DNA of 64,000 nt from Nitrospirota bacterium (GCA_963790025.1 CAWBMP010000002.1:544001-608000); one strand, 5' to 3'; counted from the stretch's first letter, positions 8,500-56,285 are shown. Made by a program: numbers and translations. The notes: generated from the sequence alone by a model not told the origin.

Positions 8500-8510
8500 T
8501 TCCTGGCGAT

Positions 8511-17912: not shown

Positions 17913-19130
17913 TCAGTTCTTCCCTTTTTTGTGTATGTTCCACATATCGATCACTTCGACGTTGCCGGAAAATTTGACTGTTTTGTATGCCTCATGCGGT
18001 ACGCCGATTATCACAATGTCGGACATGGCGACAAGTTCTTCTTTAGTAACAAACGCAGGGTCTTTTACATACTCATCGGACAACAAAACCGTACTGCCCT
18101 TGTAGCGGAGAATTTTCCCGAGTTTATATGACAATGAATCACGAATATCATCGCTTTCGGCTTTGAAGGCCATTCCGAGGATCCCGACCTTCATTTTTCT
18201 CAAATCATATTTTTGGGACAATCTCTCAACAATAAAATTAGGAAGCCCCTCGTTGATCGTCATAGCCACCTGTCCCATGATAAAATTATGTTTTTCAAAG
18301 GCAAAAAGCTGCATCGTGTCCTTCATAAGGCATGGCCCTGCCGCGAATCCCGGACCGGGAATGCTTTCCATTCGGGGGTATCCTCGTTTCATTTTATTGA
18401 GAAGTCCGTTGTAATCTATACCCGCTGACTCTACCATCATATAAAGCTGATTGGTTGCGGCAAACTGGATGTAGCGGTGGGCGTTGCAGATCAGTTTTGC
18501 AAACTCCGCTTCCCTCGGCGTTGCCTCTACGATCGCAGGCGCGATCTTCCCGAACAGATCACTCGCTACCCGGACCGCCTCAGGCGTTGTGCCGCTGACA
18601 ATCTGAGGCAGGGACTGTATCTCTTCGATGCCCTTGCCCTGCACTACACGCTCCGGGCAGAACGCGAGGGGATTATTCCTGCCGCGGGACCTGAGATAGC
18701 GGTCAAGGTATTCCGTAGCCCCTGGCGCAACAGTAGAACGCAGGATGATTGTCTGCCCATCCAGGAGAAAGGGGAGCATGCTGTCCACTGAACGGGTTAA
18801 AAGACTGAAGACTGGATTATGGAATTCGTCAATAGGAGTGCCTATGGTCAGGATCACAACAGGAATTCCTGAAACGTCTTTTATATCGGATGTAAACCCC
18901 AGCATGTCCCTGGCAAGGACTTTCCCTAGCATGGTCTCGCCGCCTTCTTCCATGAAAGGCAACTTCCCCTGCGAAAGAATGCTTATCGCTTTTTCATTGA
19001 GATCGCAGATCAGCGTGCGCATGCCCTTGTCGGCTAAAACAATGGATAGCGGAATCCCCACATGGCCGGCGCCCCCAATGACACAAACGTCATAATTACT
19101 CTTCGAATCACTTTTCATGGACATATTCAC
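17913..19130 (-). CDS. UDP-glucose/GDP-mannose dehydrogenase family nucleotide-sugar dehydrogenase
   Basis: GGAGHVGIP, LRSTV.PG, FCPERV, EAEFAKL, GPCLMKD (catalytic Cys), GMAFK..SDDIRDS. Confidence 0.88.
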   Translation of the reverse strand: MNMSMKSDSKSNYDVCVIGGAGHVGIPLSIVLADKGMRTLICDLNEKAISILSQGKLPFMEEGGETMLGKVLARDMLGFTSDIKDVSGIPVVILTIGTPIDEFHNPVFSLLTRSVDSMLPFLLDGQTIILRSTVAPGATEYLDRYLRSRGRNNPLAFCPERVVQGKGIEEIQSLPQIVSGTTPEAVRVASDLFGKIAPAIVEATPREAEFAKLICNAHRYIQFAATNQLYMMVESAGIDYNGLLNKMKRGYPRMESIPGPGFAAGPCLMKDTMQLFAFEKHNFIMGQVAMTINEGLPNFIVERLSQKYDLRKMKVGILGMAFKAESDDIRDSLSYKLGKILRYKGSTVLLSDEYVKDPAFVTKEELVAMSDIVIIGVPHEAYKTVKFSGNVEVIDMWNIHKKGKN

Positions 19131-20253
19131 CCTTCAGCAATTGATTGTAACGGTTGAGAAGCCCTTCGGCAACCACTCGAATGTCAAATTTATTTTGGAC
19201 CATTATTTTTCCCTGTGTCCCAAGCCTCCTGGATTTTTCGGGATCGTCCAGGAGATCGTTCAGTTTGACGGCCAGATCACCGGAGTCTCCTCTCTTGACC
19301 AGCAGCCCCGTTTTCTCATGAATGACCGCCTCACGGACATCCTCACCTTCAAAAGCCACCACCGGAGTCCCCACGCTTTGCGCTTCCAGGACCGTGATCC
19401 CCACAAAGCCGTCCAGAATGCCCGGCTTCACACAAATGTCCGCCAGCGAAAGCAATGCAGGCACATCCCTGCGCACGCCCAACAACTCCACTTTTTTTTC
19501 GAGTCCGAGTTCCCGTATGAGTTCCATAATTTCGCCCCTGAGATACCCCTCTCCCACTATCAGGAATCTTACATCCCGGCGCTCCCTGCAGACCAGAGCC
19601 GCGGCGCGTACAAACAGCTCATGGCTTTTCCGCGGCTCCAAAGCTCCGATCGTCACGATAACTCTTTCGCCGGGCTTTATCCCTAACTCGCCACGTAACC
19701 TTGAGATATCTTCCTCCGAAAACCTGTCCAACAATACCACCCCGCAAACCAGTTGTTTGCAAAGACGGCTGCTCCTGACCGGCAATCGGCGATAATAGCT
19801 GGCAATCTCCGGGGAAGTCAAGATCGTCATGTCCACTCCGACCGTTAAAAACCAATTCCTCAAATGCGTTGTAACCATGAATTCATCGGGCGCGTTCTGC
19901 AAACCCATGACACTGCTTAAAAATACCGGCTGCCGATGACCATTCCATGGATTGAAAAAGGTCCTTGCCACCCATGCCGTCACACAACAACGCGCAGCAA
20001 ACAAATGGACCACGTCGGGATTCAGCTTTCCAAGAGTTTCAGCCAGCCGCCTGCCGCTGGTAAACGCCTTCAGACCATAGAAATCAATTCTCTCCGTCCT
20101 TCCACCCTCCCGGATAATATCGCTCTCCAAAGGTCCCCCTCTGGAGATGACTGTGACATGATGACCCTTTTTGACAAATTCCCGTGTCAACAGGACCAGA
20201 TTGTGTTCGATCCCTCCCATTTCAAGGAGCAGGCAGACAAAAACAATGTTCAT
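19108..20253 (-). CDS. GT4 (GT-B) glycosyltransferase
   Basis: GGIEH, GHHVTVI, IGALEPRK, VGEG, LGVRRDV, GITVLEA..VGTPVVA, TGLLV. Confidence 0.9.
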   Translation of the reverse strand: MNIVFVCLLLEMGGIEHNLVLLTREFVKKGHHVTVISRGGPLESDIIREGGRTERIDFYGLKAFTSGRRLAETLGKLNPDVVHLFAARCCVTAWVARTFFNPWNGHRQPVFLSSVMGLQNAPDEFMVTTHLRNWFLTVGVDMTILTSPEIASYYRRLPVRSSRLCKQLVCGVVLLDRFSEEDISRLRGELGIKPGERVIVTIGALEPRKSHELFVRAAALVCRERRDVRFLIVGEGYLRGEIMELIRELGLEKKVELLGVRRDVPALLSLADICVKPGILDGFVGITVLEAQSVGTPVVAFEGEDVREAVIHEKTGLLVKRGDSGDLAVKLNDLLDDPEKSRRLGTQGKIMVQNKFDIRVVAEGLLNRYNQLLKGEYVHEK

Positions 20254-20257
20254 GAAA

Positions 20258-21364
20258 TCACTGTTTAAAAAACTCTCGCAGCGCCTTTATCACCGATTGA
20301 CAGGCGGTTTCTGCCAGGTGGGGTCCCAGCGGCAGGCTGAGTCCGGTCTCGCAGGCCCTCTCGGCATGGGGCAGACTTCCCCGGCCCAGTCCCAACCACC
20401 GGTAGGCCGGCATCAGATGGATTGGGACAGGATAATGCATCCCGGTCCCGATGCCGTGCTCTCCCAAATGCCGGGCCAGATAATCCCTCAAAGGATGTCG
20501 CACCACAAACAAGTGGTGGCAAGGCGATTCCTCATCCCGCCACCGCGGCAACCAGAGATTTTCCAATCCCCCAAGCCCGTCGATGTAATGCATAGCTCTC
20601 TTACGCCGCTGCCGGTTCCAGTCATCGAGCCTTTTCAGCTTGATTCGCAGCACCGCTGCCTGGATAGCGTCCATCCTCTCAGTAGAGCCGACGAATCGGT
20701 GATCAAACGGTTTTAACGCCCCGTGGTTCCTGAGCATCAGCAACTTCTCGCTGAGTTCCTCATCATCCGTTACCAGTGCGCCTGCATCACCGCATGCCCC
20801 TAGGTTTTTCCCTGGATAAAAACTGAAAGCTGCGGCATGACCAAAGGTCCCCGCCTTCTTTTCGTTGATCAGGGCACCGTGCGCCTGGCAGGCGTCCTCC
20901 AACAGCTTGATTCCGTGGGCATCTGCCAGACGCCTCCATCTATCAAGGTCCATGCAATGACCAAACAGATGCACGGGCATGAGCGCCCTCGTCCTGGTTG
21001 TGATAGCCTGTTCGGCCGCTTCGAAGCCGGCATGGATACCATCCGGCTCGATATCTATCAACACGGGTTTTGCGCCCGTCAAAGCCACGGCCTCTGCCGT
21101 AGCTACAAATGTATTTGCAGGGAGGACAACCTCGTCCCCAGGCCCGATGCCCCAGGCCCGCAGACAGTAATGCTCTGCCGCCGTGCCGCTGCTCACCGCA
21201 ACACAAAAGCGCCTCCCGACATACGCTGCGAACTCTTTTTCGAAGCTCTCGACTTCGTGTCCTCCGGTAAACCTTCCCGTTGAGAAGATACCGGCGAGAA
21301 GCGGCTCTGCCTCACCACGAATTTCCGCCCACTGCGGACCAAGATCAAGAAATGGGACCTTCAT
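20258..21364 (-). CDS. DegT/DnrJ/EryC1/StrS sugar aminotransferase (WbpE/WlbC-like)
   Basis: VPFLDL, SSGT.A, PVHLFG, EDACQAHGA, FSFYPGKNLGACGDAG (PLP lysine), HYPVPIH. Confidence 0.92.
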   Translation of the reverse strand: MKVPFLDLGPQWAEIRGEAEPLLAGIFSTGRFTGGHEVESFEKEFAAYVGRRFCVAVSSGTAAEHYCLRAWGIGPGDEVVLPANTFVATAEAVALTGAKPVLIDIEPDGIHAGFEAAEQAITTRTRALMPVHLFGHCMDLDRWRRLADAHGIKLLEDACQAHGALINEKKAGTFGHAAAFSFYPGKNLGACGDAGALVTDDEELSEKLLMLRNHGALKPFDHRFVGSTERMDAIQAAVLRIKLKRLDDWNRQRRKRAMHYIDGLGGLENLWLPRWRDEESPCHHLFVVRHPLRDYLARHLGEHGIGTGMHYPVPIHLMPAYRWLGLGRGSLPHAERACETGLSLPLGPHLAETACQSVIKALREFFKQ

Positions 21365-21858
21365 CCGGCATCCTCCTTGAGTAACAGCCTTGCTGGATTT
21401 CCCGCAAATACCGCGCCGGGCGGGACATCTCTTGTCACCACGCTTCCAGCGCCAATCGTAGCGCCTTTCCCAATAACTACCCCGCTAAGAATTGTAGCGC
21501 TGGTACCAATGGACACCTCATCCTCTATACGCGTGGGAACGCACACCCAATCATTGTCCGTCTGAAGGGTCCCATCCCGGTTAATTGCTTTGGGATACTT
21601 GTCATTAATAAATGAAACATTATGGCCTACAAAAACACCGTTTCCGATTTCAACGCCCTCACAGATAAAAGAATGGCTGGAGATTTTGCAATCCGATCCG
21701 ATCCGGCAATTTTTTTGCAGTTCAACAAATGAACCTATTTTCGTCCGGTCACCGATTTCGCAGTCATATGCATTCACGAATTCATAGAATTTCACGTCAC
21801 TTCCAACTTTCACATTCCTGAGGCAGCGCCTCGGGGAATCTTCATTGACTATCTTCAT
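21361..21858 (-). CDS. Hexapeptide N-acetyltransferase (WbpD/WlbB-like)
   Basis: CKISSHSFICEGV, FINDKYP, IGAGSVVTRDVP, AGNPAR. Confidence 0.88.
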   Translation of the reverse strand: MKIVNEDSPRRCLRNVKVGSDVKFYEFVNAYDCEIGDRTKIGSFVELQKNCRIGSDCKISSHSFICEGVEIGNGVFVGHNVSFINDKYPKAINRDGTLQTDNDWVCVPTRIEDEVSIGTSATILSGVVIGKGATIGAGSVVTRDVPPGAVFAGNPARLLLKEDAG

Positions 21859-21860
21859 TA

Positions 21861-22874
21861 TTATAACAATACCTCTTTACCGGAGCTCTTGATGCTTTGT
21901 TCGGCGGCCTCCAGAATTCTTACAACTCTCAGGCCGGAATCGCTGCCGCTGATCGGCCTTTCCTGTCCGCGCACAACGTTGGCAAAATGCGTCACTTCCC
22001 GGCTCAATGCCTCTACGTTCTCTATGTGCGGAGCAAACATGTCTCCCATACGATATTGCACGAGGGTCTTGTAGATGCCCTCCCGCTCCTCAACCACATC
22101 CACACCCTTGTCATAGACCTTGATCTTCTCAACCGTTTCCATATCGTCGAACACAATCATTTTCTTCGTTCCCCCGATCAGGGTTGTCCTGATTTTAACC
22201 GGCGCCAGCCAATTCACATGAAAATGGGCAATAGTGCCGTTTCCGAACCGCAAAGTGAGGTACGCGATGTTCTCCAGCCCGTCGGAATAATGGGCCACAC
22301 CAGTCACCTGGACGCTCAACGGCCTGGCATCCAGCACATAATCCATTATTGAAAGATCATGCGGGGCTAGGTCCCATACAACGTTGACGTCATGCTGGAA
22401 CAAGCCAAGGTTCACGCGGACCGAATCCCAGTAAAGGATCTCTCCCAGGCTCCCCGACGCTACAATTTCCTTAAGTTTGGTCACGGCACCCGTATAATTG
22501 AAGGTATGGTCCACCATTAAAACCAGCCCCCGCTTGTCCGCAAGTTCGATCAGGGTCTCGGCCTGCGCCACGGTACGCGTCATCGGTTTTTCCAGCAGTA
22601 CATGTTTGCCGTTTTCAAGACATGCCTTTGCAAGCTCAAAATGTGTATCAACCGGGGTTGCTATGGCAACAGCCCCTACTGCGTCATCTTTCAGGATGTC
22701 CGCAAGTTCCTGGGTCTGCCTCGCCGCCGGATACAGCGCGCCGATTTTTGCAAGTCTCGCGGCAGCGCGATCACACAAATGAGATAATTGGGTCGCATTG
22801 CATGCTGCAACATTTCTCGCCAGATTCGGCCCCCAATAGCCCAAGCCGACGACTGCCATTTTCAATGGTTCCAT
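21861..22874 (-). CDS. Gfo/Idh/MocA-family sugar dehydrogenase (WbpB/WlbA-like)
   Basis: VVGLGYWGPN, HVLLEKP, MVDHTF, WDLAPHD. Adjacent to the acetyltransferase and aminotransferase. Confidence 0.88.
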   Translation of the reverse strand: MEPLKMAVVGLGYWGPNLARNVAACNATQLSHLCDRAAARLAKIGALYPAARQTQELADILKDDAVGAVAIATPVDTHFELAKACLENGKHVLLEKPMTRTVAQAETLIELADKRGLVLMVDHTFNYTGAVTKLKEIVASGSLGEILYWDSVRVNLGLFQHDVNVVWDLAPHDLSIMDYVLDARPLSVQVTGVAHYSDGLENIAYLTLRFGNGTIAHFHVNWLAPVKIRTTLIGGTKKMIVFDDMETVEKIKVYDKGVDVVEEREGIYKTLVQYRMGDMFAPHIENVEALSREVTHFANVVRGQERPISGSDSGLRVVRILEAAEQSIKSSGKEVLL

Positions 22875-22898: not shown

Positions 22899-25745
22899 TT
22901 ATTTATAGAATCGGGCAAAGAGTTTATTATACTCATTCCTTTCATGATCGTTAAGTTTTTCAGGGTCCATCATTTCCATTGTAGCCCTTCTGACGTTCTG
23001 TCCCATCCTTCTTGAGTATTCCTCATCCGACAAAAATCTTTCCGCAGCCCTGGCCATGGACTTCCAGTCTCCATATTCAACCAGTTCCCCGGTCTCGCCG
23101 CTCTTTATCAGCTCAGGCTGCCAGTCGACATTATATGCCACTATAGGAACGCCGCCAAGGGCGGCCTCGGTCAAAGCACGGCCCGTATGAGGAGACAGCG
23201 CAACCGAAGCTTTGGGGATTACCCTTGCAAGCCATTCCTGGTCCCTGTTGCCCACAAATGCGACATCCCCTGAGATACCCAGTTTGGCAGCCGTCTGCTC
23301 AAGTTCTTTCCTCATCCTTCCATCGCCCGCAATAAGACACGCGATCTCATTGCCCCGTTTCTTCAGTTCGGAAAGAACAAACAGCACATGATCAGGCCGC
23401 TTCACGGCTTCCAGTCTTCCTATGTATATGGCGAACTTCCTGCCCGACAACTTAAAGCGTGCAAGCAGCTCTTCGGCGTCAGGACGCTCGGCCGGGTCCT
23501 TGTAATGCGCAGAGTGTATCAGGTTTCCATAGCGAAACACTGTAGAACATTCCTTCCTTGCACCGTTTTTCAGGGCAAAGTTAAGATTGTTCTGATTGGC
23601 CCCGGCAACCAGATCGGCGCGGGGAAGAGTGACCTTTTCAATTATCTTTTCTATCCATCTTTTACGGAAAAGCCTCGGCATGGCAACTCTTCCCGTAGCC
23701 TTATAGATATCGTCATAATTGCCCCCAATTCTTATAACAAAAGGAATCCCGAATGCCCTCGAAAGAGCGAGACCGAGCAATCCCAGATAGTAAGGCTCGC
23801 CGGCCCGGACCATCGAAATATGCTCTCCGGCGATCAGGCGGGAGAGGTAAAGATACAGGGACCATTGGGCAAGGGCAAAATTAAGAGCAGGCAGTTTCCG
23901 TAGTGAATCATATCTTCCTACCTTGCCTTCCACTATTGTATGTCTTTCAGCCAATGGCGTGCTGACCGGTTTACCATAGGTATCAGCCTCGTTCGCCGGG
24001 GGTATCACTGTGGCCAGGGGATGCACTGACCAGACATGCTCGAAATACCCTTCCAGGTCGCGGCAGGTGATGGATTCGTGCAACTGTCTCTTGCGAATTG
24101 CCTCAAGCGTATACGCCATATCCAGGATGAGCAGGCGTTTTCCTTTGAGGAGACCCTGTTTTTTTTGAAAAACAGCCTTCATCGCAACATAGACTAACAA
24201 GGAGGACAACGCCACCGCTGCGGCAATAGTATCAGCTGTCGCAGTCAATACTTTGGAAAGGGACAGTGAATTATAATAAGTCCCGATCACTTTTTTGATT
24301 CTTTCTATCGACAATACGACTAAATCACTCGTTATCACTTTCAGATAGCTCAACTTCTTTCTGCTCTTTAATACGGCTTTCCAATATGCCGGATTGAGGG
24401 TATAATCTATGATGCTCCGAAACCTGTTTGCCTTGATTGTGGCCCTGATTCTCAGACTCGTCAGGTTCATGCGATGGCTGGCCATGTAAAAACGGGGATC
24501 AACCACCTTAAAGAAAAGATTATCAGCGTTATAGATTTTATAATCCTCCTTTGTCAAAGGAGGGTTCACATAGTTCCTGTAAATGGCCGTTCCCGGAAAA
24601 GGCACGGTCAGGCATATAGCTACCCTGGTGGGACGTATTCGCCCCATCATCTGCAAAGTCTTTTTCGCATCTTCAGCCGTCTCTCCAGGCGTATTGAACA
24701 TGAAATTGGCATATGTCCTCAGGTTATACTTTCTGCATAAATCGAAACACTTCACTATCTGATCTTCGGTAATGCCCTTTTTCATCCTCCTGAGCGCTTC
24801 ATCGGAGCCTGATTCCACGCCAAAATCCACCTGTATGCAATTTGCCCCGCTTATCAAGCGTGCCATTTCCTCATCGAGTATGTTGACCCTTGTCTCCATT
24901 GCCCAGATCAAATCTATCTTCCTGCTTTTGAGGCCCTCCACAAATTCAACAACCCTGGGCTTCTTGATCATGAATGTATCATCCAATATGTAGAACGAGT
25001 CTATGTTGTATTTGTCCCTCAAACCCTCGATCTCATCCAGGACCTTTGATATCGGCCTGTATTTGACCTTTCTGTTCCTGTTGGCGCAAAAGGTGCACGA
25101 AAAAGGACATCCGATAGTTGTAAATATATGAATGCCGGACACAATCAGGTTTCTTATAATTCCCATATGGGGCTTTGCATAGTAGTTCATGTCCAGTTGT
25201 GAATAATCAGGATTCGGCAGAGTGTCCCAATCATTGAAGCTCGAACTCCCTTGTACTAACAGCCCGCCTTCTTTCGACCGCATTACAACGCCTTCCACAC
25301 CCCCCAGTCCCTGCCCGGCGTCCAGCCGTCTGATGATTTCAACCAACGGATATTGTCCGTCCCCTGCGACTGCAATGTCTACAGGACTCCCTTCAAAAAA
25401 GAAATCCTCAGGCTTGATGCTTACATGCAGGCCGCCGATTATGATAGGACAGTCATGGTTCTTCTTTATTGTCCTGCACAAGCTGATCACATCCCAGAAC
25501 TCCGGTGTATAGCACGGGAGACCTATATACCGCGGCCGCAATATTTTGACCTGTTCGATAATCTTGCGGGCAACCGCATCCATCTGCTTTCTCGTCGCGG
25601 CTATGCCGGGCCGTCCGGTCTTTATATCGACAATCTTGCATGCAATATTCTCATGTGTAAGCCAGGCGTGCAGATACAGCAAACCAACCGGGACCGTTGC
25701 TGAAGCGCTCCTGCTAGGTGGTGATACAAGGCATATATCGGTCAT
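22899..25745 (-). CDS. Fusion: cobalamin-binding radical SAM enzyme (N-terminal) + GT4 glycosyltransferase (C-terminal), 948 aa
   Basis: The N-half has a B12-binding domain (PVGLLYL, IIGGLH), GCPFSCTFC, DDTF, FGVESGS and TPGET. A hydrophobic linker follows. The C-half has YIGRLE..K, AGDG, EAALGGVPIVA and GETGELV. The reading frame is continuous. Confidence 0.85.
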   Translation of the reverse strand: MTDICLVSPPSRSASATVPVGLLYLHAWLTHENIACKIVDIKTGRPGIAATRKQMDAVARKIIEQVKILRPRYIGLPCYTPEFWDVISLCRTIKKNHDCPIIIGGLHVSIKPEDFFFEGSPVDIAVAGDGQYPLVEIIRRLDAGQGLGGVEGVVMRSKEGGLLVQGSSSFNDWDTLPNPDYSQLDMNYYAKPHMGIIRNLIVSGIHIFTTIGCPFSCTFCANRNRKVKYRPISKVLDEIEGLRDKYNIDSFYILDDTFMIKKPRVVEFVEGLKSRKIDLIWAMETRVNILDEEMARLISGANCIQVDFGVESGSDEALRRMKKGITEDQIVKCFDLCRKYNLRTYANFMFNTPGETAEDAKKTLQMMGRIRPTRVAICLTVPFPGTAIYRNYVNPPLTKEDYKIYNADNLFFKVVDPRFYMASHRMNLTSLRIRATIKANRFRSIIDYTLNPAYWKAVLKSRKKLSYLKVITSDLVVLSIERIKKVIGTYYNSLSLSKVLTATADTIAAAVALSSLLVYVAMKAVFQKKQGLLKGKRLLILDMAYTLEAIRKRQLHESITCRDLEGYFEHVWSVHPLATVIPPANEADTYGKPVSTPLAERHTIVEGKVGRYDSLRKLPALNFALAQWSLYLYLSRLIAGEHISMVRAGEPYYLGLLGLALSRAFGIPFVIRIGGNYDDIYKATGRVAMPRLFRKRWIEKIIEKVTLPRADLVAGANQNNLNFALKNGARKECSTVFRYGNLIHSAHYKDPAERPDAEELLARFKLSGRKFAIYIGRLEAVKRPDHVLFVLSELKKRGNEIACLIAGDGRMRKELEQTAAKLGISGDVAFVGNRDQEWLARVIPKASVALSPHTGRALTEAALGGVPIVAYNVDWQPELIKSGETGELVEYGDWKSMARAAERFLSDEEYSRRMGQNVRRATMEMMDPEKLNDHERNEYNKLFARFYK

Positions 25746-25787: not shown

Positions 25788-26786
25788 TTATGCCGACACA
25801 TCTCCCCTGCCGACAATAACAGGTTCATTAATAATAACTTCAACATTATTCATTTGCGCATCCCTGAACCACTTTCTTACAGTATCAATGGTCTGCGGCT
25901 GATCATGGGCCGGCGAGAGCATATCGAAGGTATCGAGGACGGCCCACTCCTTAAACATCTTTTCATCAGGCAGATCGAATATCCCCCTGTAATCGGCAAT
26001 GAGCAGCTTGAAAACCAATCTTTTACCGAGGAAAGGGATTTTCCCCAAAAAAGTAGCCAGCGGCCACATCGACTCCACATATTTCTCACACAATTTGTAA
26101 AGCCTCTCAGCCTGAATGTTCCTGGTGAAAGGTCGCACCCAGTATTTTGTGTTCAGTAGTTGCCTGAAAAAACCTCTTTTAATGTAAACATCTATGACCA
26201 TGTTACCGCCCGGTTTTAGATACCTGGGCAATACAAAAAAAGCTTTTTCAACGTCAGGAGTATGCTGCAACACCCCAAAACAGAACAGCTTGTCAAAAAA
26301 TTTTTCCCTGAACGGCATGTTATATAAATCAGCCTGAACAATAATCACATTGTCCCTGCCGCCATTGGCAGCGTAATTCGCATCGACAGCATAACTGTAA
26401 TCGAGAGAAAGGACCATGGCTCCGGTTAAAGCCGCATGTTCGGTAAACCTCCCCGAACCGCATCCTGCCTCCAGTATTATCTCGCCTCGCAAATCGGTCT
26501 TCCAATGGGACTCCTCAAAAAATCGTGACCTCGAAATGTCGGCCCCGCTATAAGCGTCATATTGGGTCCTCGAATGTTTGGTCCATTGCAGGCCAAAGCT
26601 GCTGGCGTAGTTTTCAATGGGAACAAAGCGCGGTATATTCCGTATAATCTTATAATCTGCTCCGCATTTCCCGCATCCGAGAGTTCCGGTTGTAATCGAT
26701 GTTTCGTTTTCTTCGGTTACATTAGTTATCCCGAGTTGCTCTTTGCAGGCAGGGCAGACAAGATACTGGAGATGCGCTTTTCTCAT
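25788..26786 (-). CDS. Class I methyltransferase with N-terminal Trm112-like Zn-finger
   Basis: LVCPAC...CGKC..YKIIRNIPRF, then SFGLQW, LEAGCGSGRF, GVLQHTP, LKPGG. Start at 26786 (ATGA overlap). Confidence 0.82.
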   Translation of the reverse strand: MRKAHLQYLVCPACKEQLGITNVTEENETSITTGTLGCGKCGADYKIIRNIPRFVPIENYASSFGLQWTKHSRTQYDAYSGADISRSRFFEESHWKTDLRGEIILEAGCGSGRFTEHAALTGAMVLSLDYSYAVDANYAANGGRDNVIIVQADLYNMPFREKFFDKLFCFGVLQHTPDVEKAFFVLPRYLKPGGNMVIDVYIKRGFFRQLLNTKYWVRPFTRNIQAERLYKLCEKYVESMWPLATFLGKIPFLGKRLVFKLLIADYRGIFDLPDEKMFKEWAVLDTFDMLSPAHDQPQTIDTVRKWFRDAQMNNVEVIINEPVIVGRGDVSA

Positions 26787-27793
26787 TTGACTTCTCTTCC
26801 CAGCCAACTCCGCAATTGAGTCCTTCTTATAAGAGAATCAAAGAGATCTTTATCCACCGGTTTGATATTGATATTGTCCAGGAAACCTTCTTCTACAGAC
26901 TTCCTTATTATCTCGGGGCATGTTCCCTTGTTAATAAATGTGACAGACCGGGCAATAATCTTTGACATAATAATCCTGATATTATAACAAACTACAATCC
27001 ACGAAAGACACAATTTCGTACTCGTCTTCATCGGTGACCTGAGAATTCTGCGGATATGACTTTTTGCAAGGATAAAAAAAGGCAGATAATATTTAGGTTT
27101 CCTTTTCCCGGGGAAAATATTCCGGTAATCCTCGTCTATGGTATTCCATTTCAGCCTGCTGAAGTAGGCGAACATAATTTCAGGGACCTGCCTGAAGCTG
27201 CCGTATAAGGCAAGTTCCTGGACAAATGCCTGATCGGTCGCCAAATGCTTTTCAAACAACAGCGTCTTTCTTACGGCTTCGAGCCTCATCAAACCATAAA
27301 CCGCCACCTGGGGGAATGTTCTCAAAACCATTTTATAACGTTCGACCGGATCATTAATCCCATCGATTGTTTCAAGAGTGGCCGTACAAAGTGTGTTTGC
27401 ATAGCCCTCGCACCTTAATTCGGTATGAGAGTGACATAGCACGGCAGCGGGATCGGCTTCCAGCACTTCAACGCATTTCCTGACATAAGCCGGCGCCCGC
27501 CTGTCATCGTGCGCGGCCCACATGAAATACTTGCCGGAAGAAAGCTCAACAACACGATTGAAATTCCAGAAGCTGCCCCGATTTTCCGGGGACCGGCTAT
27601 ACTTCACCCTCGGGTCCCTGCGGACGTATTCAGCGCAAATCTCCGGTGTCTCATCCGTTGAAGCATTGTCCGATACGACTATCTCAAGATTGGGATAGTC
27701 CTGCTCACGCAGGGAATCCAGGGCGCGGGCAAGTCCTTTTTCCCCGTTGTAGACAGGTACACCTATGCTGACTAATGGCATGGTATCGCTCAT
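26783..27793 (-). CDS. GT2 glycosyltransferase
   Basis: PLVSIGVPVYNG, SDNASTD, YFMWAAHDD. Confidence 0.9.
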   Translation of the reverse strand: MSDTMPLVSIGVPVYNGEKGLARALDSLREQDYPNLEIVVSDNASTDETPEICAEYVRRDPRVKYSRSPENRGSFWNFNRVVELSSGKYFMWAAHDDRRAPAYVRKCVEVLEADPAAVLCHSHTELRCEGYANTLCTATLETIDGINDPVERYKMVLRTFPQVAVYGLMRLEAVRKTLLFEKHLATDQAFVQELALYGSFRQVPEIMFAYFSRLKWNTIDEDYRNIFPGKRKPKYYLPFFILAKSHIRRILRSPMKTSTKLCLSWIVVCYNIRIIMSKIIARSVTFINKGTCPEIIRKSVEEGFLDNINIKPVDKDLFDSLIRRTQLRSWLGREVK

Positions 27794-30870: not shown

Positions 30871-32166
30871 TCAGATATTCTCTGGATTGTAATCAGCAGC
30901 AATATTAATACCATGCGGGCGCTTATACTTGAAGCAAAGGACCACCGCGCTCAGCGCAACCATTTCGGAAACCACCAATGCAACCGCCATCCCTATATGC
31001 TTGTAAACAGGAGTCAGTATAAAAGCCAGGACCAGATTGACTATTCCTGCAAATATTACCACCCTGGAATATGCCTTATTCATATTGAATGCCAGCAATC
31101 CCAATGACGCTGCCAGACCACTGGAGCAAACAAGAAACGGCAGCAGTGAAAGAATTCTCAGAACTGCCACAGACCCGGGGTATTTAGGTCCCAAAAGTAT
31201 TCTTACAATATAAGGGGCAAGGACAAAAATCATCACCCCCAGAATAATTGTAAATCCGCCCATGCCCGCAAGGGCCTTATTAAAGATATTGACCGCCTTC
31301 TTCTCCGAGGTAACCGCCAACCTGCTTATATATGGATACATTGCTTGCGAAACAGGACTCAACATTGCAATAAAAGCTTTCACAATAGCATCTGCCGCCC
31401 TGTAATATCCCACAATAACATTGCTGCAAAACAATCCCAGGATAAAGACATTACTGGAAGTGTAAACAGTCCCCGCGAACAGTCCCAGAAAGACATGCCA
31501 GCCCTCTCTCAGTTCCGTGTAAACCGCCGCTTTCCGGGGAAGAGATATTACTATGCCGAAATTTCTAACAATCATCCACAGACTGATCGCGCCGACTATG
31601 ATTGTCCCAAGGGAATTCAAAAGAGGAACATAAAGATAGTCCGATTGTTCTCGCACAAAAATAAAGATGGTGACCAGATAAATGACCCTTGCAAATGTAT
31701 TGAGGACACTTATATGTTTCATTTTCTCCATGCCTTGGAAAAACCATGTGGGGAAAAAAACATTGCCCGGGACCATCAGGAAAGTTATAAGATAAAGTTC
31801 CCAGTTGGTCCTGAATTTGGAAAATATGATTACCATCAAAATAAAGACAGTGAAGCATGCAAGCATGAGAACAATCTTTATAAACATTATGGAGTTGAAA
31901 ACCTCGGCAAGTTCTTCTTTATGATCTCTGCTAACTGCCACCTTTCTCGGAGCGCTATGCACAAAGCCATAGTCTATTACAGTCACGAAGTAGAAAACAA
32001 AGGCCTGGGCAAAGGCGACCAACCCGTATTTCCCCGGGCCAAGGACACGCACCAGATACGGCAAAGTAAAAAGCGGCAGTATGCAGGTCACTCCCTGGAA
32101 AGCGGCCAATGAAAGAAAATTTTCGATTACCCGCTTTGCCTCCTGCGATAATGATTTGATAACCAT
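30871..32166 (-). CDS. wzx: Wzx-type polysaccharide repeat-unit flippase
   Basis: LFTLPYLVRVLG...YG, DYGF, WFFQGMEKM, VGYY.AA, QAMYPYIS; about 12 TMs. Start MVIK at 32166 (TGATG overlap). Confidence 0.88.
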   Translation of the reverse strand: MVIKSLSQEAKRVIENFLSLAAFQGVTCILPLFTLPYLVRVLGPGKYGLVAFAQAFVFYFVTVIDYGFVHSAPRKVAVSRDHKEELAEVFNSIMFIKIVLMLACFTVFILMVIIFSKFRTNWELYLITFLMVPGNVFFPTWFFQGMEKMKHISVLNTFARVIYLVTIFIFVREQSDYLYVPLLNSLGTIIVGAISLWMIVRNFGIVISLPRKAAVYTELREGWHVFLGLFAGTVYTSSNVFILGLFCSNVIVGYYRAADAIVKAFIAMLSPVSQAMYPYISRLAVTSEKKAVNIFNKALAGMGGFTIILGVMIFVLAPYIVRILLGPKYPGSVAVLRILSLLPFLVCSSGLAASLGLLAFNMNKAYSRVVIFAGIVNLVLAFILTPVYKHIGMAVALVVSEMVALSAVVLCFKYKRPHGINIAADYNPENI

Positions 32167-33551
32167 CAGTTCTCCAGGACCCTGTTTTCGGCAGTGGCAG
32201 ACCGGTCTGTTTGTCTCCACCTGGTGAAGTCCTGAATTGCGGACGTAAAACCAATACTCACTATGGTCATATAGAAGCAGTAGCGAAACCGGTTAAGTGT
32301 GCCTATATTGGGGTAGGTATAGGCGAATACAAGCACTCCGCATATGCTGTACAGGACCACCAGCCAGAAACTGCGATTTTTCCGGCAGATCAGCAAGCTC
32401 CGCACAAAAAAAGCAATACAGATATAAAAAAACATGGTAAGAATTCCCAGGACGGCCCTTCCGGCCGTAGTTGCCGGCGTAGTACCCGGCGAAAACCACA
32501 TTGACGGGAAAGGGCTCAGGAAACCGACCTCGAGCGCGCGGGGCAAATACAGGAGATAATCTTCTGATGACTCAAAATTGACCTCCGGGTCAATCACCGA
32601 GCCTCCGCCAGTAGCAGACACGCCCCATCTGACTTGCGCCAATATATATAATTTTGATTCGATATACCTGGGCATAATAGAACTGAAGCGCCACTCGATC
32701 TCATGCTGTTGTCCCTTTTTGGCTATCATTTCCGCCGCTTCATCCCACTGCCGAACAGTGCCTTCGGCGAACTTATCCAAAAGTGCGGTCTGCGTCACCA
32801 GCATAATACAGAGCAGTAAAACTGCTGCAATATGATAGATTACCCTTGATGAACGCCTGTGCAGTGAAACGATCATATGAAAAAAAATCACCGCGATCAA
32901 AACCGCACACACGACCGCCACAACCTGTCCCCAGTAATTACGCGACGCCCAGATCAATGTGGTCCCTGGTACGAAAGCAAGCCCCGCGCATATGAAAAAG
33001 CGCCATTTCTCTTCTTTAATGCCTTTCATAATCAAAAGCCATGCGCTGAGGACCAACAGATTGCCGAGAATAAATGTTCCGTCCCTGTGGATCTGCGACG
33101 CCCACTCCAGGGATGCCGGGTTGAGAACAAACAGCGCAGCCCCGCCAAAAGCCGCTGTCCGGTCAAAATGAAGAAAAGAAGAAAGAATGAAGAAAACCAC
33201 GCATCCTGCGGTGGCATGCAAGACCGCGTTGGCAGGAATCATGGAAAAGGGTTCAGGATACCACAGATAATAAAAAATTGACGCCAGACCGGCAGGGTAA
33301 CCTTTTGGTCCCGGGCTGAGTTGCCAGGCACTCCACCCATATTTCATCATGTCCGATGCCTGTTGCAGCGCCACCCTGTGGAATTTCGCTGAATCCTGGA
33401 CAAACAGGCCGTGCCCATAATTCATCCTTGTCAGAAAATGCGGCAGCAGCACCAGTTGTATTATAGCGGCCACCGCGGCAGTATACACGAAAAAGAAAAG
33501 CCACATGCCCCACCATGTTGTCATCCATTTTTCGACTTGCTTTAAATTCAT
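32166..33551 (-). CDS. Polytopic membrane protein, ~455-aa family copy 3 (Wzy/GT-C-like)
   Basis: WWGMWL, QDSAKFH loop, LEWASQIHRDGTFILGN, YLPRALEVGFLSPFPS, NIGTLNRFR. Strongly similar to 33548-34918 and 40039-41397. Confidence 0.7.
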   Translation of the reverse strand: MNLKQVEKWMTTWWGMWLFFFVYTAAVAAIIQLVLLPHFLTRMNYGHGLFVQDSAKFHRVALQQASDMMKYGWSAWQLSPGPKGYPAGLASIFYYLWYPEPFSMIPANAVLHATAGCVVFFILSSFLHFDRTAAFGGAALFVLNPASLEWASQIHRDGTFILGNLLVLSAWLLIMKGIKEEKWRFFICAGLAFVPGTTLIWASRNYWGQVVAVVCAVLIAVIFFHMIVSLHRRSSRVIYHIAAVLLLCIMLVTQTALLDKFAEGTVRQWDEAAEMIAKKGQQHEIEWRFSSIMPRYIESKLYILAQVRWGVSATGGGSVIDPEVNFESSEDYLLYLPRALEVGFLSPFPSMWFSPGTTPATTAGRAVLGILTMFFYICIAFFVRSLLICRKNRSFWLVVLYSICGVLVFAYTYPNIGTLNRFRYCFYMTIVSIGFTSAIQDFTRWRQTDRSATAENRVLEN

Positions 33552-34918
33552 ACGATGTCCCGCCGTCGACTCTCCCTTGACTTCATGAATCTTTCAGTCA
33601 TGACTGCAAAGCCTGCGCTCACAATGGTCATATAAAAACAGTATCGCAATCGGTTAAGAACTCCGACATTGGGATAGGTATAGGTGAACACAAGCACTCC
33701 GAAAATACTATAAAGGACGACAAGCCAGAAATTACGGTTTTTCCAGTACATCCGGAGACTGCGGACAAAAAAAGCAATACAGATATAAAAAAACATGGTA
33801 AGAATTCCGAGAACAACTCTTCCGGCAGTCGTTCCCGCTGTCTTGCCCGGTGAAAAGCACATCGAGGGAAAGGGGCTCAGGAACCCCACCTCCAGCGAGC
33901 GGGGTAAATACAGGAGAAAATCGTTTGAAGACTCAAACTCGACCTCCGGGTCAATAAGCGAGCCTCCGCCCATAGTAGCCGCAGCCCATCTGACTTGCGC
34001 CAATATGTACAATTTTGATTCGATATACCTGGGAATAAAAGGACTGAATCGCCACTCGATCTCATGCTGCTTTCCTTTCTGGGCCATCATAGCCACAGCG
34101 TCATCCCACGCCTGAATGACCGGCGGGGCGAACTCCACCTTATTTTTCTCAGCAAGGACTATCTGCATCACCAGCATAAAGCTGACAACTAAAACCGCGG
34201 CCACATGATGAATCTTCTTTGATGCATCCTTGCCCAGGGAGACGATGAGCTGAAAAAAAATCACTGCTGTTAAACAGGCGCATGCAACTTCCACAACCTG
34301 ACCCCAGTAAGGGCGTACCACAGACATCAATGAGGCCCCGATAAAAAAAATGAACACGGAATAAATGAACTTCCGCCATTTCTCTTCGTCAATGCCTTTC
34401 AGGACAAGAAGCCATGCGCTGAGGACCAACAGATTGCCGAGAATAAATGTTCCATCCCTGTGGATCTGTGATGTCCACTCAAGGGACGCCGGGTTAAGGA
34501 CAAACAGAGCAGCGCCGCCAAAAGCTGCAATCCGGTCCTGAACAAAAGAAAAAAGAAGGAAAAAAACGAGACATCCAGCAGTGGCATGAAGGACCGCGTT
34601 AAAAGGAATAAGAGAAATGGGTTCCGGGTACCACAGATAGTAAAATATTGAAGCGATACCAGCCGGGTAAAAGTTATTAGGGCGAAGCTGCCATGCCTTC
34701 CATCCATATTTCATCATAGCCGCTGCCTGTTGTTTCGCCACCTGATGGAAACCGGTCGAATCCGGGACGAAAAGGCCGTGCCCGTAGTGCATACCTGGAA
34801 GTAAAAACGGGAGCAGGACCAGTTGCACAAAGGCGCCCGCTGCGGCAGTATACAGAAAAAATACAAGCCACATGCCCCACCATTTAGTGATCCACTTATT
34901 ACTTTGTTTTATATTCAT
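33548..34918 (-). CDS. Polytopic membrane protein, ~455-aa family copy 2 (Wzy/GT-C-like)
   Basis: Same motifs (PDSTGFH, SQIHRDG, NVGVLNRLR). Tandem with copy 3 through an ATGA overlap. Confidence 0.7.
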   Translation of the reverse strand: MNIKQSNKWITKWWGMWLVFFLYTAAAGAFVQLVLLPFLLPGMHYGHGLFVPDSTGFHQVAKQQAAAMMKYGWKAWQLRPNNFYPAGIASIFYYLWYPEPISLIPFNAVLHATAGCLVFFLLFSFVQDRIAAFGGAALFVLNPASLEWTSQIHRDGTFILGNLLVLSAWLLVLKGIDEEKWRKFIYSVFIFFIGASLMSVVRPYWGQVVEVACACLTAVIFFQLIVSLGKDASKKIHHVAAVLVVSFMLVMQIVLAEKNKVEFAPPVIQAWDDAVAMMAQKGKQHEIEWRFSPFIPRYIESKLYILAQVRWAAATMGGGSLIDPEVEFESSNDFLLYLPRSLEVGFLSPFPSMCFSPGKTAGTTAGRVVLGILTMFFYICIAFFVRSLRMYWKNRNFWLVVLYSIFGVLVFTYTYPNVGVLNRLRYCFYMTIVSAGFAVMTERFMKSRESRRRDIV

Positions 34919-34960: not shown

Positions 34961-36490
34961 TCAGGCAGAAACTTTCAGTATCTTCAGGAATTTCCGGAAA
35001 AACCTGAGTATCCGGAACCATTCTCCCCTTTGCACATCACTTATGCCTCTTTGCGCCAGATATACGATTTTCTTCAAGCTGAAAGGAATAATGAATGCTC
35101 TCAGAGAAAAATATAATGGCCAGTGCAGACGCAACAGTCTTATGTTTTTGTTCGTCAGCGCCCGCATAACCTTTGGAGATATCCTCAGCCCATATGAAGC
35201 ATAATCACTAATAAGGAAGAAAAGGCCGTTCAAATAAGTCTTTTTTGGATAAGACAATTCCTTGAGATAGACGTCTTTTATATCGTCAGTTATCACGCCT
35301 TCTGCTTTGGCTTTCTCATATAACTCCGTACCCGGATAAAAAACGAGGGAGAATATCTGCAATCGATATGGAGGCGGTAATCTTGACAGGAGCATCAGTG
35401 TGTCTGTCAAATCTTCATCGTTCTCCCATGGATTGTCCAGAATAATATCGTAATGCGGCAATTTAATCTTATCCCTGAACTCGTTAATTACATTAACCGC
35501 CTTTTCTACCTGCTCGTTGGGGTATTTTCGGCCATACAATTTTTTTGTTCTCTCGCTGCCCGACTGTATGCCCATTCTCATCAAGAACAGGCCTGCATCA
35601 ACGAGCAGCGCCAGCTTCTCTCTGTTGACCGTAGTGGGCGCGGCCCCGCCTATTATGAGGGGGAGCCCAAGCTTCTTGAATTCCGTGCAAAATTCTCTGA
35701 TTTCTTCAACGGAAAAGCTGAAAAAGGCGTCATCCTCAAACTTTATACAATTTATAAAAGGCAAACGTGCCTTGATCTCCGCCAGTTCCTTTACGATGTG
35801 ATTGACGCTTCTTTTTCTTATCTGCTTCTGTCCAGGGTGCATCTTGTTCAGCCTATTGTTGCAGCAATACGTGCATCCGAAAGGGCAACCCCTTGTCGGC
35901 AATGTCATATATATTTCGCCGTTATGCTCGCGCAGTAATTTAATATCCAACCCTTCAATGCGGCCGTTACTCAACATGTAATGGGTGCTGGTATCGTAAT
36001 CCTGAAATGGTATCCCCTCCAATGACTGCAAGGGGCGGAGAGGGTTGGTGATAATGGCGCCTTGATTCTTAAACCACATGCTCCGGACATCATGATACGG
36101 CTCCCCCTTCTCCATCTTGTTCAGCAGCTCCACAATGGCTTCTTCACCTTCGCCGATGCAAACCATGTCCGCGTAATCGAGGCTTTCCTCCGGTCGTACA
36201 GTTGGATGAATGCCTCCCCACAGTACCGGAATGTCAAGCGCGGCTTTCAGCTTCCCGGTGATTTGGACAACATTGCAAAAATAATTAGTCATCAGCGAAA
36301 TACCTATCAAATCCGCTCCCCTGCAAAACTCCACGACGTCATTGAGGGCCTCATCCTCGTATAGCTCGGTAAATTTTCCTGGAAGAAAAAGAACTCTCAC
36401 ATCATGTCTTTCACGCTTGAGACATGCAGAGATGGTTCTTATGCCGAATGCCTGAAGATCCAAATACGGCGATATCAGAATTACTTTCAT
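34961..36490 (-). CDS. Cobalamin-binding radical SAM enzyme
   Basis: B12-binding N-terminus (IGIS, WGGIHPT, CIGEGE), RGCPFGCTYC, EDDAF, MGIQSGS, YPGTELY. Confidence 0.9.
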   Translation of the reverse strand: MKVILISPYLDLQAFGIRTISACLKRERHDVRVLFLPGKFTELYEDEALNDVVEFCRGADLIGISLMTNYFCNVVQITGKLKAALDIPVLWGGIHPTVRPEESLDYADMVCIGEGEEAIVELLNKMEKGEPYHDVRSMWFKNQGAIITNPLRPLQSLEGIPFQDYDTSTHYMLSNGRIEGLDIKLLREHNGEIYMTLPTRGCPFGCTYCCNNRLNKMHPGQKQIRKRSVNHIVKELAEIKARLPFINCIKFEDDAFFSFSVEEIREFCTEFKKLGLPLIIGGAAPTTVNREKLALLVDAGLFLMRMGIQSGSERTKKLYGRKYPNEQVEKAVNVINEFRDKIKLPHYDIILDNPWENDEDLTDTLMLLSRLPPPYRLQIFSLVFYPGTELYEKAKAEGVITDDIKDVYLKELSYPKKTYLNGLFFLISDYASYGLRISPKVMRALTNKNIRLLRLHWPLYFSLRAFIIPFSLKKIVYLAQRGISDVQRGEWFRILRFFRKFLKILKVSA

Positions 36491-36714
36491 CGAATTGCCC
36501 CTTTTTCACGTTGTTCATGCCTTCGAAGCCTTGAAATAAGCTTTAAAATGGCTGTTATTTTATCTTTGCTATCTTTATTTTTGACTGGAATTTCACCTTT
36601 ACGCTGAAGCTTATGTTCAAAAATATAGGCAAAAGTCATCGACAATATAACGCCCATACGCATTAATGAAGTGATACCGTCATCTTTTAAGAAGTCTTTA
36701 ACGATGTTCGTCAA
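36487..36714 (-). CDS. Small hypothetical protein (75 aa) or gene remnant
   Basis: Exactly fills the gap between its neighbours, with 4-nt overlaps at both ends (TTG start). Confidence 0.4.
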   Translation of the reverse strand: MTNIVKDFLKDDGITSLMRMGVILSMTFAYIFEHKLQRKGEIPVKNKDSKDKITAILKLISRLRRHEQREKGAIR

Positions 36715-39963: not shown

Positions 39964-40038
39964 GCATTGTCGGGTCTTTTCTGTAAATTTGTAACCAGGT
40001 CGTTATTCTCCCAGCTTTCCATTATCCCGGCCGCAAAC

Positions 40039-44541: not shown

Positions 44542-44701
44542 AAACCACAGAGGTCACAGAGAAATTTGTTCATTTCAAAAAAAAACCTCAAAATACTCCT
44601 TATACTTCTTAGACTCTGTGCTCTCCCATATAAATAAAATATTATTCCGCATTTTAATTTCTTGAGTTCACAGAGAAAACCTCTGTGCGGCCTCTTTGGT
44701 T
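44542..44701. repeat. CACAGAG/CTCTGTG inverted-repeat element (copy 2; two arm pairs)
   Basis: AAACCACAGAGGTCACAGAG 44542-44561; CTCTGTGCTCTC 44614-44625; GAGTTCACAGAG 44664-44675; CTCTGTGCGGCCTCTTTGGTT 44681-44701. Confidence 0.75.
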
Positions 44702-55486: not shown

Positions 55487-55496
55487 ACCGGTCTCT

Positions 55497-56270: not shown

Positions 56271-56285
56271 AGCACCTCCATACTT

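Follow-up and report, generated by a model that had tools for sequence, protein, structure and literature searches.

Can a radical S-adenosylmethionine (SAM) enzyme that depends on cobalamin be tied to the sugar that one particular glycosyltransferase (GT) handles? The question is raised by a gene in a 64,000-nucleotide stretch of DNA from a Nitrospirota bacterium (GCA_963790025.1 CAWBMP010000002.1:544001-608000), which we call the window and whose positions are counted from its first letter. The gene is predicted to encode a B12-binding radical SAM enzyme joined to a GT4-type glycosyltransferase in one protein (Table 1). An original prediction had claimed an uninterrupted open reading frame (ORF) of 948 codons at 22899-25745, and such an ORF is present at exactly these coordinates. 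It lies on the minus strand, which that prediction did not state, and it starts at position 25745 and contains no internal stop. We find that the ORF and the fusion are genuine, and that the fusion is rare but recurrent. The reading that we favour, with a probability of about 0.55, is that the protein is a bifunctional enzyme of surface-polysaccharide synthesis (of the O-antigen, exopolysaccharide or S-layer-glycan type) whose radical half modifies the transferred sugar or a neighbouring one, most likely by C-methylation.

Domains and predicted structure

Three main domains were recognised by Pfam searches with curated cut-offs, namely B12-binding (PF02310, residues 16-137, 42.9 bits with a cut-off of 32.1), Radical_SAM (PF04055, residues 209-366, 80.6 bits with a cut-off of 29.5) and Glycos_transf_1 (PF00534, residues 767-920, 106.9 bits with a cut-off of 26.4). 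A weak match to Glyco_transf_4 covers residues 615-713. The predicted architecture of B12-binding, radical SAM and GT-B parts is also borne out by an AlphaFold2 model and by Foldseek. The model was built from a 38-row alignment and has a mean predicted local distance difference test (pLDDT) of 91.7, with values above 90 throughout both domains. Low confidence is confined to residues 493-517 and 525-532, and a helix is predicted at residues 504-527.

Foldseek was run against the PDB. The N-terminal half matches TsrM (1e-20), MgmA/QCMT (9CCB), OxsB, AprD4 (rank 5), CysS and TokK, and the C-terminal half matches BshA, BA1558, MshA, HepE, PglA and other GT4 enzymes, with TM-scores on the target of 0.77-0.81 for BshA, BA1558, HepE and MshA. 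PDB sequence searches agree with Foldseek for both halves. No PDB chain found by Foldseek covers both halves, the best TM-score on the query being 0.37.

All peptide motifs quoted in the original prediction were found: GCPFSCTFC at residues 212-220 (25086-25112), the hydrophobic stretch TIAAAVALSSLLVYVAM at residues 506-522 (24180-24230), and SPHTGRALTEA at residues 851-861 (23163-23195). Across the five fused proteins, comprising that of the window and four relatives described below, C213, C217 and C220 are invariant, as are GGLH (104-107), GDGQ (128-131), the GRLxxxK motif and Glu860. Judged by its motifs and fold, the N-terminal half belongs to the class-B (cobalamin-type) radical SAM enzymes, with predicted use of the cofactor, and both catalytic halves look intact. 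The source genome (3.45 Mb in 5 contigs, 98.8% complete) encodes CobS (151.9 bits), so a supply of cobalamin is plausible.

The canonical GT4 motif is E-x7-E, and SPHTGRALTEA had been described as lacking its first Glu. The motif itself is confirmed, and its reading can be corrected. By spacing, Pro852 stands at the first-Glu position (in P-H-T-G, with the conserved Gly at +3) and Glu860 is the second Glu. In a survey of the GT family, Pro occupies the first-Glu position in 71 of 79 members and the second Glu is found in all 79, so the missing first Glu is a family-wide trait, not the sign of a broken enzyme. As a speculation, Pro at this position may reflect an unusual donor sugar.

Fused and split relatives

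The original prediction proposed looking for the same domain architecture in other genomes, and the fusion does recur. A word-indexed search over 5.8 billion protein clusters returned 23 proteins, four of which (P0002-P0005; 920-927 amino acids, 55-58% identical, 99-100% query coverage) have the same four Pfam domains, with homology that is continuous through both halves. All four are clusters of one member, and each lies on a contig of its own. A profile search built on the five fused sequences yielded 63 proteins, and these include no fused form beyond P0002-P0005. When 1.84 billion representatives at 50% identity were scanned in full with HMMER, 100,816 matches emerged. Among the best 150 of these 100,816, read by eye from the table, each match covers one half (64 radical-SAM-type and 86 GT-type), and Pfam shows that none of the five listed matches with multiple stretches joins a radical SAM domain with a GT. 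P0055 is a double GT, and P0165 and P0169 are multi-radical-SAM proteins that lack a GT. P0047 (958 amino acids, two matched stretches) was considered as a distant fused form and rejected, Pfam finding no radical SAM domain in it. Distant matches of the radical half also include giants of 2-5 radical SAM modules, of B12 type plus SPASM type (P0165 with 2331 amino acids, P0169 with 2279, P0201, P0202 and P0208).

Other relatives carry the two halves as separate genes. A scan of GTDB species genomes gave two loci, L001 and L002, in which the two halves are encoded side by side in different frames; the spacer, 43 nucleotides in L001 and 52 nucleotides in L002, holds stops in all frames. On the metagenome contig L014 the split genes are direct neighbours with a TAATG stop/start overlap. 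On another metagenome contig, L015, the halves are separated by one 172-amino-acid ORF (8734-9249) that resembles a hexapeptide-repeat acetyltransferase by eye; this is the most distant pair (56% identity for the radical SAM half and 37% for the GT), and its GT bears a helix like the one discussed below. The radical SAM ORF of L012 is closed by a stop codon that lies ~330 nucleotides from the end of the contig, and the contigs L013 and L016 are cut within the radical SAM gene. P0002-P0005 were returned neither by the GTDB scan nor by that of the metagenome contigs. The tally of close relatives is four fused and four split (L001, L002, L014 and L015), so close homologues are not always two separate genes. 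In the window's phylum, 8 of 401 genomes have any match at E <= 1e-60, and the single open frame occurs in the window's genome only. In L001's phylum, 14 of 401 genomes match at E <= 1e-80, none of them fused.

That the same two genes are adjacent in L001, L002 and L014 is a classic sign of a shared pathway. The claim that the two enzymes are coupled in one pathway is thus supported by four further fusions, by these three neighbour pairs and by L015, where the genes are one ORF apart. It is very likely that the two enzymes act on the same sugar chain.

Proposed reaction

We propose that the C-terminal, GT4-like half would work on the cytoplasmic side of the membrane, where it would take a sugar from a nucleotide sugar and add it to a lipid-linked oligosaccharide, and that the N-terminal half would use a 5'-deoxyadenosyl radical to abstract a hydrogen from that sugar or its neighbour. 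Passage of a methyl group from methylcobalamin would then give a C-methyl (branched) sugar as the likeliest outcome. In this scheme, we infer the substrate, the order of the steps, the methylation, the topology of the helix and the action of both halves on the same molecule.

C-methylation is favoured because methylation is the commonest class-B reaction, because sugar C-methylases are known in this class, and because relatives of both the GT and the radical half fuse to methyltransferases. Eight of the 23 word-search matches are members of the GT family fused to SAM methyltransferase domains (P0007-P0009, P0011-P0014 and P0020), P0028 is another such fusion, and P0019 and P0211 are relatives of the radical half fused to methyltransferases. 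Passages of a review state that most characterised class-B enzymes are methylases, and name GenK, GenD1, Fms7 and MoeK5 as class-B radical SAM sugar C-methylases of aminoglycosides and moenomycin (PMC9204698). Like the N-terminal half of the window protein, these four combine B12-binding and radical SAM domains, and they act on sugar carbons after or around glycosyl transfer. They differ in being stand-alone proteins of antibiotic pathways, with no fusion to a GT and no place in surface-polysaccharide loci, and the likeness drawn here is one of domain plan and of the proposed chemistry. The suggestion in the original prediction that the fusion performs new glycan chemistry is therefore overstated, since class-B sugar C-methylases are already on record in the cited passages.

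Several points weigh against our proposal. The conserved gene module around the fusion already holds an ordinary methyltransferase, so the radical enzyme presumably methylates differently or does something else. The best PDB sequence match of the radical half is AprD4 (7.5e-19), a sugar 1,2-diol dehydratase and not a methylase. No curated NCBIfam family is matched at or above its cut-off by the radical half, and no named class-B subfamily fits (among them ApyD, HpnJ, BchE, PhpK, HpnR, BzaD, QCMT and AprD4). The top scores are 125 for ApyD (cut-off 750), 120 for HpnJ (577.6), 106 for BchE (481) and 100 for PhpK (600), with 103 for a ladderane-lipid family and 75 for AprD4 (NF033070, cut-off 500). 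With scores this far under the cut-offs, methylation is a prior and not a result, and the chemistry of the radical half cannot be read from its sequence. The predicted template-modelling score (pTM) of 0.59 describes two bodies that are each well folded but have no set position relative to one another and, together with the low-confidence junction, implies that no fixed interface between the halves is predicted. Coupling of radical modification to transfer is well supported by comparative genomics, but the claim that it is direct goes beyond this evidence. A helix that spanned the membrane would place the halves on opposite sides, which is incompatible with the proposed mechanism. The nearest genome relative with the pair, G178, belongs to the same family as the window's genome and holds the pair split (this is locus L002), and in G422 (L018) the 1.5 kb upstream of a 72%-identical GT hold no radical SAM gene, so that pairing is not obligatory. 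Finally, an AsnB-like gene of the window is broken; frameshifts thus exist elsewhere in the assembly or genome, and caution is justified.

The coupling could be as proposed while the radical half performs another reaction on the sugar, such as deoxygenation or dehydration (as AprD4), ring contraction or rearrangement (as OxsB or HpnJ), epimerisation or oxidation. The AprD4 match speaks for this, as does HpnJ, which is the second-best NCBIfam match (120 bits). In the HpnI/HpnK/HpnJ route to the hopanoid side chain, a GT attaches an amino sugar to a membrane lipid, and the sugar is then reshaped by a radical SAM enzyme of B12 type, HpnJ (TIGR03471). Moreover, with a class-I methyltransferase in the module and about ten more in the island, including two that are TylC3-like, methylation capacity is not lacking. 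However, the scores for AprD4 and HpnJ fall far under the family cut-offs, and the B12-binding domain passes its Pfam cut-off, with GGxH and GDGQ invariant, whereas AprD4 is reported to lack cobalamin. In addition, methyltransferases are the commonest fusion partner of this GT family, which suggests that the partner slot is a methylation slot. We regard another reaction on the sugar as unlikely, although not far-fetched.

Comparison with known systems

The route to the hopanoid side chain is a close functional parallel to the action proposed for the window protein, in that a GT step is followed by a B12-radical step on a lipid-linked sugar. It differs in that the HpnJ score of the window protein is far below 577.6, HpnI and HpnJ are separate proteins, and the reaction is a ring contraction and not a methylation. 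No hopanoid genes were found around the fusion gene. AprD4 (PDB 6FD2), the 1,2-diol dehydratase of apramycin synthesis, shares a sugar substrate (paromamine), but its sequence alignment to the window protein is limited to the radical SAM core, residues 207-393. The solved cobalamin-dependent radical SAM enzymes QCMT/MgmA, TsrM, TokK, CysS and OxsB, matched by Foldseek in cobalamin-bound form, share the fold of residues 1 to ~490 (Foldseek E 1e-20 to 1e-14), although they are 16-20% identical, act on peptide, protein or small-molecule substrates, and have no GT domain. The identification of PDB 9CCB as QCMT is from a review (PMC12931638).

The C-terminal half resembles the retaining GT4 enzymes BshA, MshA, PimA, HepE and PglA in its GT-B fold, Glycos_transf_1 domain, second Glu and GRLxxxK motif. 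Its family differs from them in the Pro at the first-Glu position, in a divergent N-terminal domain, and in an N-terminal helix that about four in ten members carry. Further counterparts of the fusion are proteins in which a GT of the same family, 43-57% identical to that of the window, is joined to a methyltransferase or a flippase (P0033). These have a C-terminal ordinary SAM methyltransferase or an N-terminal membrane domain in place of the radical SAM part.

The full-text literature searched, whose coverage stops short of subscription journals, yielded neither a radical SAM-glycosyltransferase fusion nor any B12 radical SAM enzyme assigned to an O-antigen, exopolysaccharide or capsule pathway. 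In one recent review of these enzymes (PMC12931638), none of the words glycosyltransferase, polysaccharide, fused and sugar occurs, and in another (PMC9204698) glycosyltransferase occurs in one reference title only.

Evolution of the join and of the hydrophobic helix

Phylogenetic trees were calculated for each half. In the radical SAM tree (12 rows, with four 22-26%-identical paralogues of the same clusters left out and L014 and L015 not included), the seven GT-associated sequences form a clade (support 100/100) with the window sequence branching near its base. In the GT tree (23 rows, with the unrelated GT4 at 19108 left out), the fused P0002 is sister to the split L002 (100/100), and the split L001 is nested in the fused P0003-P0005 (100/100). 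The window GT stands apart and is weakly nearest to the stand-alone P0025 and P0006a, and grouping the seven paired GTs together is not rejected by the approximately unbiased test (p-AU 0.219). Identity to the window protein is uniformly 66-69% for the radical SAM halves and 45-57% for the GT halves. These placements imply that the fused or split state has changed at least three times.

The joins themselves are of different kinds. In P0003-P0005, the linker continues the radical SAM tail of L001 (KRKQRAST vs RRQPRRST) straight into the GT, and this join looks like the loss of a stop, a spacer and a start. The window junction has an insertion of ~31 residues, which is found in the window protein only and is absent from its four fused relatives. 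Homology to stand-alone radical SAM proteins ends at about residue 493, and the insertion aligns with the N-terminal hydrophobic helix of stand-alone GT relatives. P0025 and P0006 have such a helix followed by K/R-rich residues and then LLxLD, and when the window protein is aligned by HMMER to 19 GTs that are either stand-alone or fused to membrane domains, the alignments begin at its residues 495-510. In the GT family, a helix (17-residue Kyte-Doolittle mean >= 1.8) is present in 30 of 78 representatives, and 36 of 78 have fewer than 20 residues before the motif. The window helix has a Kyte-Doolittle peak of 2.03 at residues 507-525 and ranks near the bottom of the family's helices in hydrophobicity (2.11 vs mostly 2.3-3.1).

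In P0033 (926 amino acids), the GT is fused behind a Wzx-like flippase domain (Polysacc_synt_3), and the helix follows the flippase domain. P0018, P0015, P0017, P0031, P0041 and P0047 also have the GT behind a flippase-like domain or a long N-terminal region that has no Pfam match; the N-terminal part of P0015 is multi-helical by eye, and P0017 has a long region of the unmatched kind. In relatives with a flippase domain or a long N terminus, the hydrophobic helix of the GT is the last helix before the catalytic domain. The existence of relatives that are fused to or lie behind membrane domains puts the GT family at the membrane.

The hydrophobic linker described in the original prediction therefore exists as a stretch of sequence, but it is not a designed linker; it aligns with the N-terminal helix of GTs and is missing from the four fused relatives. 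Most simply, the helix would be an inherited GT membrane helix. The window fusion would then have taken in an entire GT gene together with its anchor, which would now be internal and softened, and the other paired lineages would have lost theirs. As the radical SAM half has to remain in the cytoplasm, the anchor could not now cross the membrane. The internal helix would probably hold both domains at the membrane without crossing it. Radical SAM enzymes need SAM, a reductant and cluster assembly. A true membrane span separating the halves was considered and rejected by reasoning, as the radical half has these needs and no export signal, and the helix is so weakly hydrophobic.

Integrity of the reading frame

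The single ORF could in principle be an assembly or sequencing artefact, or a recent and inconsequential read-through, so that the cell makes two proteins and the linker is an old spacer or precedes a restart at M522. Such an explanation has some observations on its side. The same-family genome G178 has two genes, the 28 residues from ~493 to M522 are found in the window protein alone, and M522 lines up with the Met at which the separate L014 GT starts. Also, the junction is modelled at pLDDT below 50, and at least one gene of the window (AsnB-like, 2-1764) is broken over multiple frames.

Reads bear on the matter directly. The original prediction called for a check of ~24100-24400 by read mapping, for which we used Logan contigs of one public DNA run, X1 (depth 2.6-5.3, 66% of sampled words present). 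No RNA run was listed for the stretch. Three contigs span 24081-24534 with zero gaps and show no indel. The sole listed difference is T>C at 24165, which changes CAA to CAG and is synonymous in the ORF frame; it falls in the A8 homopolymer of the junction. One of the three is a variant contig with 4 substitutions in 166 nucleotides and no indel. Over the rest of the ORF, the contigs leave the bins 22914-23020, 24626-24732 and 24947-25053 uncovered. The run is shallow and may be the source sample, so what it offers is another assembly, short of strong independent proof.

Other evidence points the same way as the contigs. The two halves share one frame, so a single indel cannot create the fusion without leaving an out-of-frame patch, and the junction is instead a hydrophobic helix and a basic stretch resembling the N-termini of the stand-alone GTs P0025 and P0006, with the alignments to 19 such GTs beginning within it. 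As originally predicted, the internal ATG (24182) lacks a Shine-Dalgarno sequence, there being no purine-rich site in the 25 nucleotides upstream of M522. Lastly, the fusion is present in four other lineages. We consider an artefact or idle read-through highly improbable.

Two irregularities elsewhere in the window were noted. The AsnB-like amidotransferase gene (2-1764, minus strand) is broken over at least four frames. Its GATase part is read at 1090-1764 and SGGVDSS at 877-1089, while the remaining pieces occupy 447-938, 256-666 and 2-295; the break-up reflects either a pseudogene or a series of indel errors in the assembly, and AsnB-like genes are intact in L001 and L002. A nucleotidyl-transferase ORF (55497-56300) and a weak RmlC-like ORF (55052-55777), both on the minus strand, overlap by ~280 nucleotides, which may reflect a frameshift or a mis-chosen start.

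Genomic context

All 64 kb of the window belong to one glycan island on the minus strand. Present in it are a Wzx flippase, at least eight glycosyltransferases, about ten class-I methyltransferases and a CmcI-type O-methyltransferase, as well as RmlC-like, dehydratase, epimerase and aminotransferase genes. The fusion thus lies in a glycan-assembly setting, with flippase, GT and sugar-nucleotide genes around it. The Wzx-type flippase marks the island as one of lipid-linked repeat-unit assembly. No initiating phosphoglycosyl transferase was recognised in the window, and several ORFs of 450-570 amino acids that have no Pfam match (32166-34918 and 38245-41397) could include Wzy.

Table 1. Coordinates of the fusion gene, its parts and neighbouring genes, in window positions (residues are those of the fusion protein)
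Feature	Position	Strand	Remarks
Whole ORF (P0001), 948 codons: B12-binding, radical SAM, helix, GT4-type glycosyltransferase	22899..25745	-	ATG start, TAA stop
Ribosome-binding site GGAG, inside AGAGGAGAGAA	25750..25753	-	Just 5' of the ATG
B12-binding Rossmann domain, residues 16-137	25335..25700	-	PF02310; five-strand beta-alpha pattern in model
Radical SAM core, residues 209-366	24648..25121	-	PF04055; CxxxCxxC motif GCPFSCTFC at 25086-25112
C-terminal helical part of radical SAM half, residues 367-493	24267..24647	-	Ends in long, partly hydrophobic helix 464-493
Junction, residues 494-535	24141..24266	-	Hydrophobic helix, then basic stretch; pLDDT < 50
Internal ATG, M522	24180-24182	-	Aligns with start Met of separate L014 GT gene (MAVFNGKK vs MKAVFQKK)
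A8 homopolymer in junction	24159..24166	-	X1 variant alters second base (24165) synonymously; no length change seen
N-terminal Rossmann domain of GT-B fold, residues 536-745	23511..24140	-	Motif LLxLDxxYTLE...HVWSVHP; weak Glyco_transf_4; model; Foldseek BshA, MshA
Glycos_transf_1 domain, residues 767-920	22986..23447	-	Includes GRLEAVK (776-782) and SPHTGRALTEA (23163-23195)
Wzx-type flippase	30871..32220	-	Polysacc_synt
Class-I methyltransferase of module, ~235 amino acids	27802..28533	-	50-52% identical to one beside radical SAM gene in L001, L002
GT2 glycosyltransferase of module	26783..27793	-	46-48% identical to one upstream of radical SAM gene in L001, L002, L013, L014, L016
Extra Methyltransf_11 gene	25788..26807	-	Directly upstream of fusion
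GFO/MocA oxidoreductase	21861-22874	-	Directly downstream of fusion
Hexapeptide acetyltransferase	21361-21858	-
DegT aminotransferase	20258-21364	-
GT4 glycosyltransferase	19108-20253	-
UDP-sugar dehydrogenase	17913-19130	-	WbpA-like

A four-gene module of GT2, methyltransferase, radical SAM and GT is orthologous in the window, L001 and L002, with 47-48% identity for the GT2. In the window, the spacers between the fusion ORF and its neighbours are 42 nucleotides on the side of the upstream methyltransferase gene and 24 nucleotides on the other. GFO/MocA and hexapeptide acetyltransferase genes follow the GT in the window, L002 and L014, and DegT and GT4 genes are added in the window and L002. 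The gene set at 17913-22874 resembles, at the Pfam level of our comparison, what we take to be the WbpA/B/D/E route to UDP-2,3-diacetamido-2,3-dideoxy-uronic acid; at this domain level, all four Pfam types of the set are present.

Further genes of the island, all on the minus strand, have related functions. Stand-alone B12-binding radical SAM genes lie at 34961-36490 and 61286-62776, and the first is 22% identical to the radical half of the fusion; the L001 and L002 clusters also carry extra B12-type and SPASM-type radical SAM genes. A 513-amino-acid fusion of a GT2 and a class-I methyltransferase (36711-38252) is another protein that combines transfer with methylation. TylC3-like NDP-sugar C-methyltransferases (Methyltransf_13/14) are encoded at 44700-45962 and 8482-9780, near RmlC-like and 4,6-dehydratase genes, and imply that the island already makes branched C-methyl deoxysugars by a non-radical route. 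Genes for FkbH-like, MaoC-dehydratase, HAD-hydrolase and D-2-hydroxyacid dehydrogenase proteins, at 50554-53039 and 58796-60380, hint at glyceryl or hydroxyacyl decoration of the glycan.

These last genes, together with an acyltransferase, could build decorations, and PhpK (100 bits) and the ladderane-lipid family (103) are among the equally weak NCBIfam matches, so the radical half might act off the sugar ring, for example by methylating C or P atoms in the lipid carrier or in a substituent of the acyl, amino-acyl, glyceryl or phosphonate kind; we think this very unlikely, as the decoration genes are at least 25 kb away and outside the conserved module of L001, L002 and L014, and the radical SAM gene is constantly accompanied by two glycosyltransferases.

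Significance

The family of class-B radical SAM enzymes is very large, yet substrates, being hard to guess, are known for few of its members. In the present case, three features (the fusion, the conservation of the gene pair, and the module of four genes) indicate the lipid-linked sugar of a specific GT as the substrate neighbourhood. The fusion therefore gives an orphan class-B clade a testable neighbourhood in which to seek its substrate, the lack of which is the usual obstacle to study. On the sequence comparisons made here, the fusion appears to be a rare, recurrent union of two known superfamilies in an unstudied clade, and we do not claim unprecedented chemistry. The new elements would be the fusion as such and the use of a class-B radical SAM enzyme on a surface polysaccharide. 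In addition, the locus offers a clear natural case of repeated gene fusion and fission, with, in the window, a membrane anchor that would have been turned into an internal segment.

A broader possibility, which we put forward tentatively, is that in uncultivated bacteria (Nitrospirota, L001's phylum and others) one clade of cobalamin-dependent radical SAM enzymes is devoted to the tailoring of lipid-linked surface glycans. Its members would work in obligate tandem with their own GT, sometimes fused to it, and would install C-methyl-branched or radical-rearranged sugars while the chain is being built at the membrane. A dedicated glycan-tailoring clade would represent the first B12-radical step known in bacterial surface-polysaccharide synthesis. 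If the sugar of a surface glycan is indeed C-methylated or rearranged in this way, B12-radical chemistry would extend from antibiotics, cofactors and lipids to cell-envelope polysaccharides, and this would also explain the abundance of radical SAM genes in the glycan islands of several uncultivated phyla, such as the three of B12 type in this window.

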